Source: an uncultured Gammaproteobacteria bacterium
Lineage (GTDB): Bacteria > Patescibacteriota > Patescibacteriia > UBA2591 > UBA6264
DNA length: 64,000 nt
Reading direction: 5' to 3'
NCBI GenBank assembly: GCA_964596735.1
Contig: CAZQVF010000005.1
Span: forward strand, 13,328 to 77,327
Shown here: piece by piece, positions 17,232-63,257 of the stretch
Layout: every line of letters starts with the position of its first letter
Position numbering within the stretch: position 1 is the stretch's first letter
The notes under the pieces: model-generated
What the model was told of the DNA's origin: nothing
What the model saw: the letters and a program-made list of their open reading frames with translations, nothing else
The model's database searches: none
Program-made: the position numbers and the translations under genes

Positions 17232-17256
17232 ATATTCTTAGTTAATTGGTTATTTA

Positions 17257-17334
17257 CTGTTAGTATAAGAACCTGCTTCGCAGAACCTTGAAATTAAATT
17301 CTATTATATATAAATTAAGGTAATTTAATTATAA
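17257..17334 (+). repeat. conserved promoter-like element, copy 2 (tandem with copy 3), facing the 3' end of the DGR RT gene
   Basis: AAGAACCTGcttcgCAGAACCTTGAAATTAAATTCTATTATATATAAATTAAGGTAATTTAATTATAA, near-identical to the aspS copy. Confidence 0.5.
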
Positions 17335-17410
17335 GAACCTGCTTCGCAGAACCTACCTGCCGGCAGGCAGGCCTTGAAATTAAATTCTATTGTATAAATA
17401 ATAATGTATT
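17333..17410 (+). repeat. conserved promoter-like element, copy 3, carrying a 20-nt GC-rich palindromic insertion
   Basis: ...CAGAACC[tacCTGCCGGCAGGcaggcc]TTGAAATTAAATTCTATTGTATAAA...ATTATAAA. The perfect 12-bp palindrome is at 17346-17357. Confidence 0.5.
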
Positions 17411-17464
17411 TTAATTATAAAGATTAGAAAAAGCTCGTCAAGTTATCTTATTTTGTAATAATAT

Positions 17465-18442
17465 TTATTCTACTAAACCTACTTTCTTTCTAAATTTATA
17501 CGTATTTCCGTGAATCAATAGTCCTTGATAAGAAATAACTGTCTGTCGTTTTGGATAATTCTTTAATCTTCTAATTATCTTTCGCTTTGTGGTTGTTCGA
17601 ATCTGTCGATAGCATGGAAAATGTATCCAGCCCAAAAAATCTAAACCCGAAGCATAAGTTCTAATACAAACCTTGTGTTGATGAAGTGTCAATTTAAGTT
17701 CTTTTTGTAAAAATTCAGTGATTCTTAACAATAAACCATTGAGATACTCTTTATTGTCCGATAAAATAACGAAATCGTCGCCATATCTAATATAATATTT
17801 CACTCGCAATTCCTGTTTTATATACATATCAAATTCGTGCATATAAACATTAACGAAAAGTTGGGAAGTGAGGTTGCCAAGGGGCAGACCTATCCCCAAA
17901 CGGCTGGAATAAAAACTAAAAACTACCCTTTCAATCAACCGAATAATTTGAGAATCGTTAATGTGTCTCTTTAATATTTTAATAAGGATTTGCTGATCAA
18001 TGTTAGCAAAAAATTTCTGAATATCGCATTTTAGAATATAACAAGTTTGAGAATTATTTTTTGATACCTTCTGGGCAAAATATCTGAATCTGTTCAAAGC
18101 GCGATGCACTCCCTTGTTTTCTCTACACGAATATACATCATAAATAAACTTTCTATCAAAATAAGGACACAGCTCCTTATAAATGAGATGATGTAATAAC
18201 CGATCACGCACCGTAGCTTTGTGAATATTTCTCGGCTTGGGGTCAGAAATATTAAAAGCCGAATATGGTCCGTGAATATAAGTAAAATTAACCAGAGACT
18301 TATAAAGATCTATTAAATTATCGGCCAGCTTTATTTGAAAAATCATCACATCTTTTTTATGTCTTTTACCACACAAAAAACGCTCCCAAGTCGCTAAGAG
18401 ATTTTCTATCTTAATAATATCAATATATTTAACTTTAAACAT
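17465..18442 (-). CDS. DGR reverse transcriptase
   Basis: RT motifs: IENLLATWERFLCGKRHKKDV N-terminus, LPLGNLTSQLFVNVYM (DGR-specific SQ motif), YIRYGDDFVIL (YxDD). ORF track starts at 18511; start at MFKVKY (18442) abuts the divergent avd ATG (CATATG). Confidence 0.9.
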   Translation of the reverse strand: MFKVKYIDIIKIENLLATWERFLCGKRHKKDVMIFQIKLADNLIDLYKSLVNFTYIHGPYSAFNISDPKPRNIHKATVRDRLLHHLIYKELCPYFDRKFIYDVYSCRENKGVHRALNRFRYFAQKVSKNNSQTCYILKCDIQKFFANIDQQILIKILKRHINDSQIIRLIERVVFSFYSSRLGIGLPLGNLTSQLFVNVYMHEFDMYIKQELRVKYYIRYGDDFVILSDNKEYLNGLLLRITEFLQKELKLTLHQHKVCIRTYASGLDFLGWIHFPCYRQIRTTTKRKIIRRLKNYPKRQTVISYQGLLIHGNTYKFRKKVGLVE

Positions 18443-18820
18443 ATGACTACAATATCTGCGCGAGTACCATTGGTGCTTGTTAGAACAAAAAGGGCTTATC
18501 AAATTTGGCACAAAAATTTAGTCAATCTTAATCGACTTGATCGCTATACTATTGGTGCTAAAATCGATGAATATTTTCTATCTTTATTGGAATTAATTTT
18601 TAAGGCCTGTTTTGCTTACGATAAATTTGAAAAACTCTCAATGGTATCACAAGCGATTGGTAAAAACGATTTATTAAAATTCTTTTTACAGATTGGTTGG
18701 GAACAAAAAACCATTAACCATAAAAATTATGGTCTTCTAATACTTTTACTTGATGAAGTTGGTCGAATGCTGGGTGGCTGGAAAAAAAATATACAAGAAA
18801 AAACTCCCGCTAGTAAGTAG
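18443..18820 (+). CDS. avd: Avd-like accessory variability determinant (four-helix-bundle / IVS family), divergent from RT
   Basis: 125 aa, basic. C-terminus LLDEVGRMLGGWKKN resembles the Bordetella phage Avd C-terminus (AEVGRILGSWI), with the helical pattern of the 23S-IVS family. Confidence 0.6.
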   Translation: MTTISARVPLVLVRTKRAYQIWHKNLVNLNRLDRYTIGAKIDEYFLSLLELIFKACFAYDKFEKLSMVSQAIGKNDLLKFFLQIGWEQKTINHKNYGLLILLLDEVGRMLGGWKKNIQEKTPASK

Positions 18821-18840
18821 CAGGAGAAAAAATTAAATAA

Positions 18841-18960
18841 GTCACAGAAGCAGAGCAGGCAGTCGTTATCATCCCAAGCGTTCTCAAAGTTGCCGAGGTT
18901 GAAATTAAAGTCATCATCCGAGTTGCGGTTGACATTCGGCACGCGGTAGTTGCCGTCAGA
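18841..18960 (-). repeat. DGR template repeat (TR)
   Basis: Minus-strand sense translates ...SDGNYRVPNVNRNSDDDFNFNLGNFENAWDDNDCLLCFCD, rich in AAC/AAT codons. Not part of a real gene. The GC-rich end CGACTGCCTGCTCTGCTTCTG is shared with the VR (IMH-like), with one non-A mismatch. Confidence 0.85.
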
Positions 18961-19194
18961 CAATGTACAGCCCGCCACCTTTTTCACTAAGGGTAACGCC
19001 AGTCGCCCTCTGTATTTTATTCTGAGCCAAAATGCTCAATAGCACGCTGCACCGACTGATTTAATTTTTTCATAAAAGGTTGCACTCATTTACTAAGCAT
19101 GCCCAGTAAATTCCTGGCAAACTCCCTTTACGAGAATTCGATGATATAAAGCCATGGCCACATATCCAATCTATTATCCAAAAATATTATACAG

Positions 19195-19238
19195 AAAAAA
19201 TACATAAAAGAAAAGGGTCCTTACATTGGTAAGAACCC
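19195..19238 (-). terminator. hairpin + U-tract downstream of the DGR target gene (terminator; possible DGR homing hairpin)
   Basis: Minus sense GGGUUCUUAC-CAAU-GUAAGGACCC forms a 10-bp stem with one G-U, followed by UUUUCUUUUAUGUAUUUUUU. Confidence 0.55.
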
Positions 19239-19289
19239 AAAGGGTCAAAAAATCCAAAGAACAGGACTAAGAAACCAAGTGCCTAAGCA

Positions 19290-19997
19290 CTAATCGCAGT
19301 CGCAGAAGCAGAGCAGGCAGTCGCTATCATCCCAAGCGTCCTCAAAGGGGCCGAGGAAGAAAATAAAGTCACCAACCGAGTAGCGGTCGACAGACGGCAC
19401 GCGGTAGCTGCCGTCAGAATCGATCCAGAGAGCCTCTTTCTCATCAAACGAGACAGACCAACGGCTCTTTGGCAACTTGTTTTTGGCAAGTTCATAGACC
19501 AGTGAAGCGCCTTGAGCGCCGGCTAAAACAGCTTTCTGAGAATACAGGAAATTTAAACAGTCTTCCGAAGTCACAGTTTCTGTGATATTAAAAACCTTTA
19601 CCTTGAACTTTCTGCCAGGCACGAGCTTTGTTGTCGCTTTGTTAAAGTGCTTATCAGTGATGTCGGAATTGTAGTAATTAAATTCCGAGCCATGCGCTGC
19701 TGCAAAGTCAGTCAAGCGCGTAGCATGGTCGTAACCCTTAGGCACAACAATGTTAAACGCATTGGCCAATTTGAAGCGCGGGTCAGGCATAAACGGTGAA
19801 AGAGCTTGCTGACGTTGTTTCTGTGTCAGATTTAAAAAACATTCATATTCTGGCAAACTCATTTGCCCTTTCTTGATCTTCTGATTGCAATCCATATGCA
19901 GACCAGCCAATTTGGCCGCTTCTGCGCCGATAGATGTCTTATCCATCATTTTCTCCTTTGATACCAAGAGTTTAATAATTGACCCCATGCCAATCAT
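19290..19997 (-). CDS. DGR target protein with C-terminal variable region
   Basis: C-terminal 40 aa (GSYRVPSVDRYSVGDFIFFLGPFEDAWDDSDCLLCFCD) are encoded by the VR. N-terminal portion has no recognised domain; start codon uncertain (several in-frame Met). Confidence 0.75.
   Translation of the reverse strand: MIGMGSIIKLLVSKEKMMDKTSIGAEAAKLAGLHMDCNQKIKKGQMSLPEYECFLNLTQKQRQQALSPFMPDPRFKLANAFNIVVPKGYDHATRLTDFAAAHGSEFNYYNSDITDKHFNKATTKLVPGRKFKVKVFNITETVTSEDCLNFLYSQKAVLAGAQGASLVYELAKNKLPKSRWSVSFDEKEALWIDSDGSYRVPSVDRYSVGDFIFFLGPFEDAWDDSDCLLCFCDCD
19299..19418 (-). repeat. DGR variable repeat (VR) at the 3' end of the target gene
   Basis: Differences from the TR occur only where the TR has A on the sense strand (AAC to AGC, GAC, TAC, TTC, CCC; GAT to GTT, GGT). 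Confidence 0.85.
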
Positions 19998-20095
19998 TTT
20001 CTCAGTATTGATAATATTATGTCATATTTTAGCCTTTTTGTCAACACTCCTATTCCAAAAGACTTAAAATTTATATTAATCTAAAATAAAAACAC

Positions 20096-20201: not shown

Positions 20202-20890
20202 TTATTTTAATCCACTTTGTAATTTTAACGCGTCAATCCATCCTTTAATTCGAAAAGCTATCTTACGACCATGTACACGTAAATCAAGTGTGCCATATGG
20301 CAAAGAATTGATTGGACGTTTTCTGTTGCTCGCTTTGCTTATTTGTTTAAAAATGCGAAAACGACTTTTAGGAATATTAGTTACTCTAGCCCAAAAATTA
20401 ATGGCAGATTGCTCGCTAATATTAGCATGTATTCTAACACATACTTTTAATTTCTCTTCAGGGACTTTAATAATTTCTCGTAAAAAGCGAAGAAACAACG
20501 CAATCATATAAGGATCAGCATTAACAAAATCAACTACATACCCTTTGTTTTTTTGAGCCTCAATTTTATATCCCTCTGCCCAATAAAGAGCATTTGCAAC
20601 TAATAATAACTCATATTTTGACAACGAATGAATTTCATTAAAAGTCTCCTTCTTTATTCTCTGATTTTCAATCCAAATAGCACGTGTCCGTTGCCGATTG
20701 TTTTCAAATAACCCATGTTCTCGAGCAATTCTCGTTTTTTTTTCTAAAAGCTTTTTTGCTGACTTTGTTAGTTTTAAGTCTCTAAACCAAACGCTAAGCG
20801 AGCCCTTGGAAACACTTAAAGTACGAGCTATTTCATTGTAACTTTTACCCTTTAACCGCAACCTGAGCGCTTTTTGATATTGTGGATGCA
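20202..20890 (-). CDS. hypothetical HTH-domain protein with LAGLIDADG-like motif (possible homing-endonuclease-like protein)
   Basis: HTH segment KGKSYNEIARTLSVSKGSLSVWF; motif LLLVANALYWAEGYKIEAQK...VDFVNADPYMIALFLRFL resembles degenerate LAGLIDADG. ORF track start (20954) overlaps tRNA-Glu, so ATG at 20890 (MHPQYQ) is used. Confidence 0.35.
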
Positions 20891-20908
20891 TAATAATTAA
20901 ATATATAA

Positions 20909-20980
20909 GTAGCGCCAAGGGGAATCGAACCCCTGTTACATGGTTGAAAACCATGTGTCCTGACCACTAGACGATGGCGC
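20909..20980 (-). tRNA. tRNA-Glu (UUC)
   Basis: GGCGCCA acceptor stem (G1-U72), anticodon stem CATGG/CCATG with loop TTTTCAA (anticodon TTC), T-arm GGGGTTCGATTCCCC. Confidence 0.85.
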
Positions 20981-21019
20981 CATTATTATTTAGCGCAATC
21001 TTAGCAAAATTAAACGAAT

Positions 21020-62908: not shown

Positions 62909-63257
62909 GGGGGTGAAAGGAATCGACAGGAAGCCAGTGTTAAAGACAGCTTTTTGTCCTGAGAAAGACACAAAAATTCTCAAAAAACATAATTGCCAAC
63001 GAAAAGTTAGCATTTGCTGTAGCTTAAACAAGCTAAAGCCGTTAAGACTAAAGACTCCTCCTATTTAGTCATTGACGTCAATCTAGAAGGATCGACATTT
63101 TGGTTGCCTGGATCAAAATGTTTAAAAAATCAGGATAGAGTTTAAGAATTTTGTCTTGTTTCAATTCTAAAACTCAAATAGAACAAACAAGACTATAAAA
63201 GTAGACATTTTTAACAGCACTTTCTAGACGGGAGTTCGATTCTCCCCACCTCCACCA
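62909..63257 (+). ncRNA. ssrA: tmRNA (ssrA), one-piece; tag peptide ANEKLAFAVA
   Basis: 5' GGGGGTGAAAGGAATCGAC pairs with 3' GGGAGTTCGATTCTCCCCACCTCCACCA (G3-U70 Ala identity, encoded CCA). Tag ORF gcc aac gaa aag tta gca ttt gct gta gct taa at 62995-63027. Confidence 0.85.

Follow-up and report, generated by a model that had tools for sequence, protein, structure and literature searches.

The described systems closest to the locus considered here include the diversity-generating retroelement (DGR) of the Bordetella phage BPP-1, which is the mechanistic prototype and the one DGR that has been studied well, and the DGR cassettes of the Patescibacteria (CPR bacteria). The BPP-1 element has the gene order mtd-avd-TR-brt, and its template repeat (TR) is followed by a structured spacer of ~140 nt, which contains the priming site as well as a stem-loop that binds the reverse transcriptase (RT), and which serves as a scaffold. 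DGR reverse transcriptases carry the motif (I/L/V)GxxxSQ, where those of group II introns and retrons have QGxxxSP instead. Immediately 3' of the TR, BPP-1 possesses an Avd-binding stem-loop, and for 207 of 278 DGRs Handa et al. (bioRxiv 10.1101/2023.10.23.563531) predict a stem-loop of this kind close to the TR on its 3' side. In the CPR bacteria, 90% of the set of DGRs follows the architecture B3, which is TR-(avd)-RT with the avd gene reversed (Wu et al. 2018, NAR 46:11, PMC5758913).

The region 17465–20044 of the 64-kb stretch of DNA that was analysed (the window) can with great confidence be regarded as a chromosomal, currently active DGR of the Patescibacteria (CPR) type, in which the target gene with its variable repeat (VR), the TR, a reversed avd and the RT gene follow one another in this order. 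Cassettes of exactly this type are known to abound in CPR bacteria, and the locus is a confirmation that is ordinary for the group. A complete DGR had been claimed in an earlier note on this DNA, and this is borne out by adenine-specific divergence between TR and VR, an RT, an Avd, and a VR at the 3' end of the gene for a C-type-lectin-like target. The genes and repeats are as follows.

17465–18442, minus strand: gene of the DGR reverse transcriptase, 325 aa when read from ATG 18442; as defined mechanically, the ORF reaches back to GTG 18511
18443–18820, plus strand: gene of the accessory protein Avd, 125 aa, with an ATG that directly adjoins that of the RT gene
18841–18960, minus strand: template repeat (TR), 120 nt with 28 adenines; 3' end GC-rich and IMH*-like
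19290–19946, minus strand: target (variable protein) gene, probably 218 aa; the ORF is extendable to 19997
19299–19418, minus strand: variable repeat (VR), codons 194–233 of a 235-codon ORF, with two further codons before the stop

In the window the RT, avd and target genes are each an intact ORF, and the surroundings of the element consist of housekeeping genes on the chromosome. The avd gene lies on the plus strand between TR and RT, with RT, TR and target on the minus strand. The TR thus shares its strand with the RT gene and lies 398 nt ahead of the RT start, with the reversed avd in between. The same arrangement, with A-biased TR/VR pairs, occurs in ~70 related Patescibacteria loci; counted on its own, the reversal of avd beside the RT is found in ~70 of 80 related loci, nearly all of which are labelled Patescibacteria. 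The locus resembles the CPR B3 DGRs (Wu et al. 2018, PMC5758913) in gene order, strands and host group, and also in a target without Pfam domain, AAC-rich codons in the TR, and the presence of a terminator after the target gene instead of a GC-rich cruciform. Unlike the BPP-1 element, it has avd on the other strand and is chromosomal, not located in a phage. One point against the assignment as an active DGR is that the ATG of avd directly abuts the ATG of the RT gene (CATATG), which leaves zero intergenic space and no Shine-Dalgarno sequence for either gene. No further remote VRs are present within the 64-kb window, where the IMH-like block occurs only twice. A 229-aa HTH ORF (20202–20891) was considered as a DGR accessory gene and rejected, with a homologue in 0 of 80 related loci.

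The RT is homologous to that of BPP-1 over its full length, and the Avd is likewise a homologue. Among PDB sequences the best relative of the RT is Brt of phage BPP-1 (8ub7, 5.9e-40, residues 9–305), and the next class, that of the group II intron RTs, follows at 2.1e-17, 22 orders of magnitude behind Brt. Matches were also obtained with Pfam RVT_1 (2.3e-21) and PHROG 1423 (4.6e-92). The DGR-specific motif that had been noticed earlier is indeed there, as LGNLTSQLF at RT residues 187–195, with YGDD at residue 220, and on these sequence relationships the RT is assigned to the DGR clade. Translation probably starts at the ATG and not at the upstream GTG; in public contigs, gene callers likewise give a 325-aa RT. 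For the accessory gene, the matches to Pfam and PHROG identify the 125-aa ORF as Avd, in agreement with the earlier note, which had left unstated that it lies on the strand opposite to the RT. The family suggested at the time, PF05635, gave no match; instead, PF22296 (bAvd) is matched at 47.5 bits (cut-off 40) over profile positions 8–106 of 107. PHROG 3206 ('Avd protein of DGR') is matched at 1.3e-15, and NCBIfam NF033474 (DivGenRetAVD) at 4.5e-14 and 52.6 bits, which is under the equivalog cut-off of 80 and thus a further point against. The C-terminus of the ORF reads ...EVGRMLGGWKKNIQEKTPASK. A phmmer search with Avd against PDB sequences, at E up to 1, returned no Avd chain and nothing relevant.

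The two 120-nt repeats had been located exactly, and their differences amount to 15 instead of the estimated 16. The expectation that mismatches would be confined to adenines of the TR holds for 14 of these 15; the exception is a T-to-C difference (TR 18844, VR 19302), which is fixed and lies 4 nt from the 3' end of the repeat. With 28 adenines in the TR, at least 14 of 15 mismatches would fall on A by chance with P = 7.9e-10 (hypergeometric). Every A change from TR to VR is at codon position 1 or 2, comparable to the A-to-N changes at positions 1 and 2 of AAY codons in BPP-1, and the codon changes read earlier were found again, with TCT in addition: AAC/AAT codons become AGC, TCT, GAC, TAC, ATT, TTC, CCC, GAC and AGC, and GAT becomes GTT and GGT. 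The identical GC-rich 3' ends take the form of a 20-nt block, GACTGCCTGCTCTGCTTCTG, of which the window contains exactly two copies, one terminating the TR and one the VR. Variable sites extend up to position 95 of the 120 in the TR, after which only the one fixed T/C difference follows. Judged by sequence, the GC-rich blocks, which have their counterparts in BPP-1, would be IMH/IMH*-like and would bound the mutagenesis. The TR was said to lie outside any real gene; an 86-aa ORF does cover it (18727–18987, minus strand) but was rejected as a gene: it is the TR read in the frame of the VR, it overlaps avd antisense, and it is not credible as a coding sequence.

The VR had been described as the last 40 codons of a 235-aa gene. 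These 40 codons are followed by two more before the stop, and a protein of 218 aa is likelier, with its start probably at ATG 19946, because of an AAAGGAG ribosome-binding site and the match to homologues of 218 aa. At the sequence level, the target has zero matches to Pfam and NCBIfam families, Foldseek gave no significant match to the PDB, and no signal peptide or membrane segment is visible in the sequence. The predicted structure comprises an N-terminal three-helix region and then a C-type-lectin-like domain, of which the VR would form the last three strands; the model thus has the CLec fold with the VR as C-terminal ligand-binding face, and in BPP-1 the VR is also at the C-terminus of a protein with C-type-lectin fold. 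In comparison to variable proteins of the Mtd, TvpA and FGE-sulfatase types, the target, at 218 aa, is a small protein, and its three-helix N-terminal region is private to it. The family appears lectin-like by structure prediction, whereas many CPR VR classes were left unassigned by Wu et al. (PMC5758913).

Variation of the VR at A positions at the population level had been set in advance as a test that could refute the DGR, and it was found when metagenome contigs were compared. The comparison is at the assembly level, i.e. between assembled contigs from different metagenome samples. Outside the VR, contigs L001, L005 and L006 agree with the window at every position over 2.9–8.7 kb, except for a single difference in L006; in the VR they differ from the window at 2, 16 and 15 sites, respectively. 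Taken together, the four VR alleles have 23 variable sites, 21 of which are TR adenines, which means that 21 of the 28 TR adenines have been used, and the TR itself is identical in all metagenome copies compared. One change concerns a non-adenine position (T-to-G at VR 19406 in L005) and is not A-mutagenesis; rare non-A changes have been reported for DGRs, and this one is compatible with them. The VR is turned over in nature on an otherwise clonal genome, i.e. mutagenic retrohoming is ongoing. The locus is a rare natural case in which DGR activity is visible without experiments, and since a clonal chromosome carries four VR alleles, it is a good anchor for measuring DGR turnover at read level in the source metagenomes.

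A single genome cannot show current activity, and the TR-frame ORF at 18727–18987 could also be interpreted as a pseudogene derived from the target C-terminus. One might therefore take the repeats for an ordinary duplicated gene fragment near an unrelated or dead retroelement, with the A-bias as a coincidence or relic, but the strength of that bias (P = 7.9e-10), the four VR alleles with 0–1 other differences in up to 8.7 kb and an invariant TR, and the intact RT, avd and target ORFs make this extremely improbable. There is hardly more reason to believe that the RT is of another class (group II intron, retron, or defence-associated DRT/Abi) and the element not a DGR. NCBIfam does rank a group II intron RT first (1.8e-37), but with 129 bits where the cut-off is 300, and apparently it contains no DGR-RT model; PADLOC gives weaker matches to many DRT models. 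Against such an assignment stand the 22 orders of magnitude by which Brt, as the best solved relative, leads over group II RTs, the size of 325 aa without a maturase or endonuclease extension, and the lack in Rfam of a match to a group II intron, retron or other RNA family, next to the combined presence of LGNLTSQ, an adjacent Avd and an A-biased TR/VR pair.

With the locus taken as an active CPR-type DGR, comparison with ~120 related loci reveals conserved parts outside the coding sequences that go beyond the protein-centred surveys in the literature searched, i.e. a leader RNA, a CTTNG array and simple-sequence tracts. The non-coding features of the window are listed below.

18795–18826, minus strand: post-TR stem-loop and U-tract; 9 bp (18826–18804), 15 nt after the TR; overlaps the avd stop codon antisense
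18961–19179, minus strand: structured leader RNA, ~220 nt, directly 5' of the TR; seven helices, one of which (12 bp) closes a three-way junction
19186–19191, minus strand: -10-like TATAAT box, 6–7 nt before the first conserved leader nucleotide
19205–19238, minus strand: intrinsic terminator of the target gene; 10-bp stem (19238–19215), then a U-tract
19238–19287, minus strand: CTTNG array with five motifs (19287–83, 19279–75, 19271–67, 19259–55 and 19242–38), mostly 8 nt apart
20016–20044, minus strand: promoter-like site of the target gene, TTGACA, 17 nt, TG-CATAAT; 11 of 12 consensus positions, by pattern match only

Where BPP-1 has its structured spacer 3' of the TR, the present locus and its relatives have a conserved structured RNA 5' of the TR. 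Its consensus comprises 56 pairs, 42 of which show compensatory changes (RNAalifold, 25 loci), and 96.3% of the cells are paired as compared to 37–48% in slid controls. A covariance model of the leader (R1) matches the window at 18960–19179 with 216.5 bits and is found at full length in 64 of 80 RT-related loci, and in that alignment 53 of the 56 pairs covary. Over 100 related loci have the leader immediately beside their TR. If loci are retrieved by a 21-mer of the leader instead of by the RT, a DGR is present wherever flanking sequence exists. In Rfam 15 the leader matches no family, neither at the gathering threshold nor at E up to 10, and neither leader nor CTTNG array was found in Rfam 15 or in the literature searched, which did not include Paul et al. 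2017 (Nat Microbiol, PMC5436926), a paper on CPR DGRs. A small ORF in the leader (ATGAAAAAA...) was rejected, because several loci lack its ATG and its frame is disrupted by single-base indels. In the -10-like hexamer, the T, A and final T are invariant in 25 aligned loci, and this box is a putative promoter of a leader-TR RNA.

On the other side of the TR, the core helix of the post-TR hairpin covaries (28 loci). By eye, a hairpin and then a U-run are present 10–20 nt after the TR in nearly all related loci; a strict automatic filter accepts 24 of 54. In alignment A3 the hairpin is 61% paired, being out of register there, and per-sequence folding and a second alignment were used for this element. 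Similar to the stem-loop at the same place in BPP-1, it is a candidate Avd-binding stem-loop and/or a candidate terminator of the TR RNA. Among the RNA features of the BPP-1 type, only this stem-loop has a counterpart; a structured spacer downstream of the TR was not found. The 164 nt past the hairpin (antisense avd) contain 0 consensus pairs by RNAalifold and show only the codon-periodic conservation that stems from avd, and the BPP-1 spacer RNA (Rfam RT-10 motif, Weinberg et al. 2017) gave no match at E up to 10. No pairing of leader or downstream RNA with the TR 3' end, as in a primer duplex, emerged from an all-against-all column scan of 28 loci, nor did a BPP-1-like 'stop' duplex between the TR flanks; apart from the helices of the leader, the scan detected the post-TR hairpin and nothing else. 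A 5-bp match (GUCGG/CCGAC) exists between an invariant block of the leader and the 5' edge of the TR, and neither side varies.

Downstream of the VR, a hairpin with U-tract at ~60 nt had been pointed out, and it is present 61 nt after the VR. This terminator of the target gene shows compensatory changes at 10 of 10 pairs, with 88–95% of cells paired (25 loci). The CTTNG array is situated between the target stop codon and this terminator, and the VR is thus followed by array and terminator, unlike in BPP-1, which has a cruciform. After the VR, the mean density of CTTNG is 3.46 per 80 nt versus a background of 0.31 (56 loci), the spacing has its mode at 8 nt (61 of 139 intervals), and the triple motif is unique within the 64-kb window. 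The array is a candidate target-side recognition signal.

Since no consensus structure occurs in the 164 nt that lie beyond this hairpin of the TR RNA, the leader is the only candidate for an RNA scaffold; by analogy, it may recruit RT and Avd, which is the role of the downstream spacer in BPP-1. An RNA with the invariant TR would then be made that starts at the -10 box (~19186–19191) and contains the ~220-nt folded leader, the TR and the 3' stem-loop with U-tract. The RT, together with pentameric Avd, would copy the TR to cDNA and misincorporate opposite template adenines. This cDNA would replace the VR, the last 40 codons of the C-type-lectin-like protein, by which twelve AAY/GAT codons on the predicted binding face would be re-randomised and the GC-rich 3' block and the scaffold would stay fixed. 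For this scheme we infer the transcript boundaries, the priming site and the manner in which the cDNA is installed. Extended to the Patescibacteria B3 DGRs, it leads to a joint reading that we put forward tentatively, as it falls slightly short of being probable: the scaffold that recruits RT and Avd and sets priming would be permuted to a multi-helix leader of ~220 nt 5' of the TR, the template would be a discrete RNA of ~385 nt (promoter, leader, TR, stem-loop/terminator), and the VR would be marked for cDNA installation by the 8-nt-periodic CTTNG array and not by a cruciform.

As in many regulators, there is a multi-helix junction in the leader, along with A-rich stretches that are unpaired and invariant, and pairing of the leader with the TR 3' end is not demonstrable in the 28-locus scan. 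These properties would also suit a function outside the retrohoming machinery, either as a regulatory 5' element (riboswitch-like or protein-binding) that times the TR RNA or as an independent small RNA. We consider this unlikely, though still deserving serious attention, because the leader abuts the TR with no terminator between them, accompanies the DGR also in loci whose target proteins are unrelated, and is absent from L088 and from the outgroup DGRs L089 and L090, the latter two having avd on the same strand; moreover, it is the site of the structured BPP-1 spacer that here lacks a consensus structure. If the leader is indeed a functional scaffold, BPP-1-type priming rules, in which a spacer downstream of the TR is used, could not be carried over directly to the largest DGR reservoir in nature, and the leader would define a minimal RNA for reconstituting a CPR DGR in protein engineering.

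With respect to its CPR B3 relatives, nothing essential differs in the locus. Most relatives possess a poly-G or dinucleotide tract between avd and RT, and there is none in the window; in the relatives, such simple-sequence tracts would suit phase-variable on/off control.

The earlier note was right in both observation and interpretation. The element is a genuine and complete DGR that is active today and belongs to the standard CPR type, which makes it unsurprising in itself. The element and its immediate neighbourhood contain the following features:

17465-18511, minus strand: ORF of the reverse transcriptase (RT), with a Pfam RVT_1 match
18443-18820, plus strand: ORF of the accessory gene avd, Pfam bAvd 47.5 bits (cut-off 40)
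18826-18795, minus strand: stem-loop of 9 bp followed by a U-run, 15 nt after the template repeat
18841-18960, minus strand: template repeat (TR)
After the target terminator: putative promoter element TATAAT/TATACT, in which the T, the A and the final T are invariant (25 loci)
19238-19205, minus strand: target terminator
19238-19287, minus strand: array of CTTNG motifs, directly after the target stop codon
19299-19418, minus strand: variable repeat (VR), at the 3' end of the target gene
20909-20981, minus strand: tRNA-Glu, overlapping the 5' extension of the 250-aa ORF 20202-20954

On the minus strand, 18841-18960 and 19299-19418 align over 120 nt without a gap and differ at 15 positions. At 14 of these the RT-proximal copy has an A (six A>T, five A>G and three A>C changes); the remaining one is a T>C change 4 nt from the 3' end of the repeat. 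As TR holds 28 A in its 120 nt, chance alone would place 14 or more of the 15 mismatches on an A with a probability of 7.9e-10. In the frame of ORF 19290-19997, all changes at adenines lie at position 1 or 2 of AAC, AAT and GAT codons. Similarity of the two copies ends at the 120-nt bounds, the flanks being unrelated, and both are closed by a 20-nt GC-rich block, GACTGCCTGCTCTGCTTCTG, of which the 64 kb hold no third copy. The earlier description of the repeats is therefore accurate; only the number of mismatches, given as about 16, has to be corrected.

The DGR is also active at present. At 90% identity the target falls in a cluster of four members, which are identical except in the last 40 residues, and the contigs of these members, which are assemblies from different samples and not reads, were compared with the window base by base. 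Three contigs (L007, L009, L010) do not differ from the window, while L001 and L005 show 2 and 16 differences, respectively, in 8708 positions and L006 shows 16 in 2926. With a single exception, at 19255 in L006, the differences are all located within VR, and TR is identical in all compared contigs. Taking TR and the four VR alleles together, 21 of the 23 variable sites are TR adenines, so that 21 of the 28 adenines are used across the alleles; population-level variation at these positions, which the earlier note had proposed to look for, is thus present at the level of assemblies. The other two sites are the fixed T/C near the 3' end and a T-to-G change in L005 (JGI 3300009311) at the equivalent of 19406. 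This change, which replaces Tyr by Asp where TR has a T, is the one VR polymorphism at a non-adenine site that the four alleles show.

The closest solved relative of the RT is the BPP-1 reverse transcriptase of the Bordetella phage prototype DGR (8ub7, 5.9e-40, residues 9-305); next come group II intron RTs at 2e-17, followed by retron and defence RTs with still weaker scores. The protein matches PHROG 1423 'Reverse transcriptase' at 4.6e-92 and contains both LGNLTSQ and YGDD. The avd product matches PHROG 'Avd protein of DGR' at 1.3e-15 and NCBIfam 'diversity-generating retroelement protein Avd' with 52.6 bits, which is under the cut-off of 80. Its gene lies on the strand opposite to every other part of the element, an orientation that looks odd beside a textbook phage DGR but is standard among related CPR loci, where it is known as architecture B3, TR-(avd)-RT with avd reversed (Wu et al. 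2018, PMC5758913). Scanning species-representative genomes with the RT yielded 80 loci, labelled mostly as Patescibacteria-group or unclassified bacterium, with about ten carrying other labels. Since about 70 of these have avd directly upstream of RT on the opposite strand, the reversed gene is the norm in Patescibacteria-type loci. Among the three most distant loci, avd is on the RT strand in L089 and L090, and no Avd was detected in L088. Most of the 80 loci have A-biased TR/VR pairs, with VR-to-TR offsets of typically 420-570 nt; the closest ones, about 30, share the target family, and the others diversify different proteins.

The target protein has no match in Pfam, NCBIfam, PHROG or PADLOC and is one of a large family of hypothetical proteins, 210-230 aa long, whose few source-named members are from Patescibacteria or unclassified bacteria. 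Its true product is probably 218 aa long, because close homologues begin at the equivalent of M18 and AAAGGAG precedes that codon. The element is chromosomal and not phage-borne, since its neighbours on public contigs are housekeeping genes (TsaD, TsaE, class I aminoacyl-tRNA synthetase, glutaredoxin, HD, Sua5) and the contigs carrying it reach 315 kb. ORF 20202-20954, which has a later start in public calls (229-238 aa) and only weak helix-turn-helix matches, was considered as a DGR part and rejected because no homologue adjoins any related DGR. A tmRNA gene unrelated to the DGR lies at 62909-63257 on the plus strand (Rfam 143.8 bits, tag peptide ANEKLAFAVA).

When 25 loci were aligned from the end of VR to shortly beyond TR, the VR-TR 'spacer' of about 340 nt proved to be highly organised. 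A leader of about 220 conserved nt starts 6-7 nt after the TATAAT-type box and runs to the first TR base. The consensus structure predicted by RNAalifold has seven helices and 56 pairs, of which 42 show compensatory changes; pairing holds in 96.3% of cells, as compared to 37-48% in controls with partners displaced by 1-3 columns, and none of 500 shuffles matched any observed pairing measure. These controls are cleaner than the covariation of 53 of the 56 pairs in a 68-sequence alignment, because that alignment was fitted to the covariance model. The model (R1) finds a full-length leader in 64 of the 80 loci, on the RT-sense strand and ending within a few nt of the TR start wherever TR could be mapped. 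Its one match in the window scores 216.5 bits and spans 18960-19179, and it found no leader in the three outgroup loci L088-L090. Scanning metagenome contigs with a leader 21-mer, independently of any protein, gave 49 loci, 40 with a full-length leader and one more cut by a contig end, and every leader locus with enough flank has the layout target-leader-TR-(avd)-RT. Neither RT nor Avd is present in the eight 21-mer loci without leader match or on the single viral contig matched. The leader has no match in Rfam 15, even at E up to 10, and a conserved short ORF within it was ruled out by missing ATGs and single-base indels. Insertions of 15-35 nt are confined to the terminal loops of two hairpins, helix 1 (L013, L086) and helix 4 (L012, L030, L034, L036, L037), as is usual for functional structured RNAs in which peripheral elements vary.

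Other signals flank the repeats. The hairpin with U-tract noted earlier downstream of VR is indeed a terminator, all ten pairs of which covary. In 56 loci (L011-L087), CTTNG occurs after VR at 3.46 per 80 nt against a background of 0.31, about 11-fold, with a sharp spacing peak at 8 nt (61 of 139 intervals); the array is kept where the target protein is unrelated, and the triple motif has no other occurrence in the window. It is a reasonable guess that the array is a candidate target-side recognition signal, since BPP-1 has a cruciform at that position. The sole non-VR difference of L006, 19255 G>T, is the last base of the fourth CTTNG motif. The post-TR stem-loop shares bases with the stop codon of avd, which is on the opposite strand; a hairpin and U-run with differing stem sequences is seen by eye in nearly all loci, and in 24 of 54 with a strict automatic filter. 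In the 164 nt beyond it, antisense to avd, RNAalifold found no consensus pairs and conservation is only codon-periodic.

In BPP-1, synthesis of the cDNA depends on about 20 nt preceding TR and on a structured 140-nt spacer following it, which begins with an Avd-binding stem-loop and also contains the priming adenosine and a stem-loop that binds RT; for 207 of 278 DGRs, stem-loops binding Avd were predicted just 3' of TR (Handa et al., bioRxiv 10.1101/2023.10.23.563531). The spacer was noted earlier as the RT-10 motif (Weinberg et al. 2017). The stem-loop just 3' of TR has a counterpart in the window element, whereas the rest of the spacer has none and a large structured RNA lies upstream of TR instead. 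Leader, TR and post-TR hairpin may form a single RNA, in which the leader would provide RT binding and priming and the 3' hairpin would bind Avd and/or terminate the transcript; as a whole, we propose this model tentatively, rating its chance slightly below even. Adenine mutagenesis and then VR replacement would follow, steps based on established DGR biology and the natural allele series. No description of the leader RNA or the VR-flanking array was found in the literature covered, which does not include the key paper of Paul et al. 2017; both are common to the whole class and worth specialist attention.

Public gene calls start RT at the ATG at 18442 (325 aa), which abuts the avd ATG as CATATG without intergenic bases. 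A Shine-Dalgarno sequence is lacking on both sides of this junction (18437-18448), in contrast to the AAAGGAG of the target gene. A leaderless RT mRNA would fit with the TATTGT hexamer located at -12 to -7 relative to its ATG. In 54 of 74 related loci (L011-L087; e.g. L037:3963, L095, L136, L014:1748, L122:4794) the junction carries a tract, either a poly-G run (RT-sense strand) of 7-16 or 6-17 units of (GA)n or (GT)n, often with a short inverted repeat GCACAAG...CTTGTGC upstream; the window junction (18440-18445, CATATG) has no tract. Tract length varies between otherwise identical contigs (G11 vs G15, G9 vs G10), for which homopolymer sequencing error is a possible source; the resemblance of the tracts to phase-variable promoters suggests phase-variable expression in the relatives.

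Downstream of RT, at 17255-17420, lie two direct repeats (34 and 49 nt, 88% identical), both of which include a small hairpin, CTGC-TTC-GCAG. A 20-nt palindrome, CCTACCTGCCGGCAGGCAGG, splits the second copy at 17352-17371. L086 has this palindrome, CCTGCCTGCCGGCAGGCAGG, as an insertion in its leader helix 1 loop, and L012 has a diverged version in one of its leader loops. The palindrome resembles a tiny palindromic insertion sequence travelling between CPR genomes.
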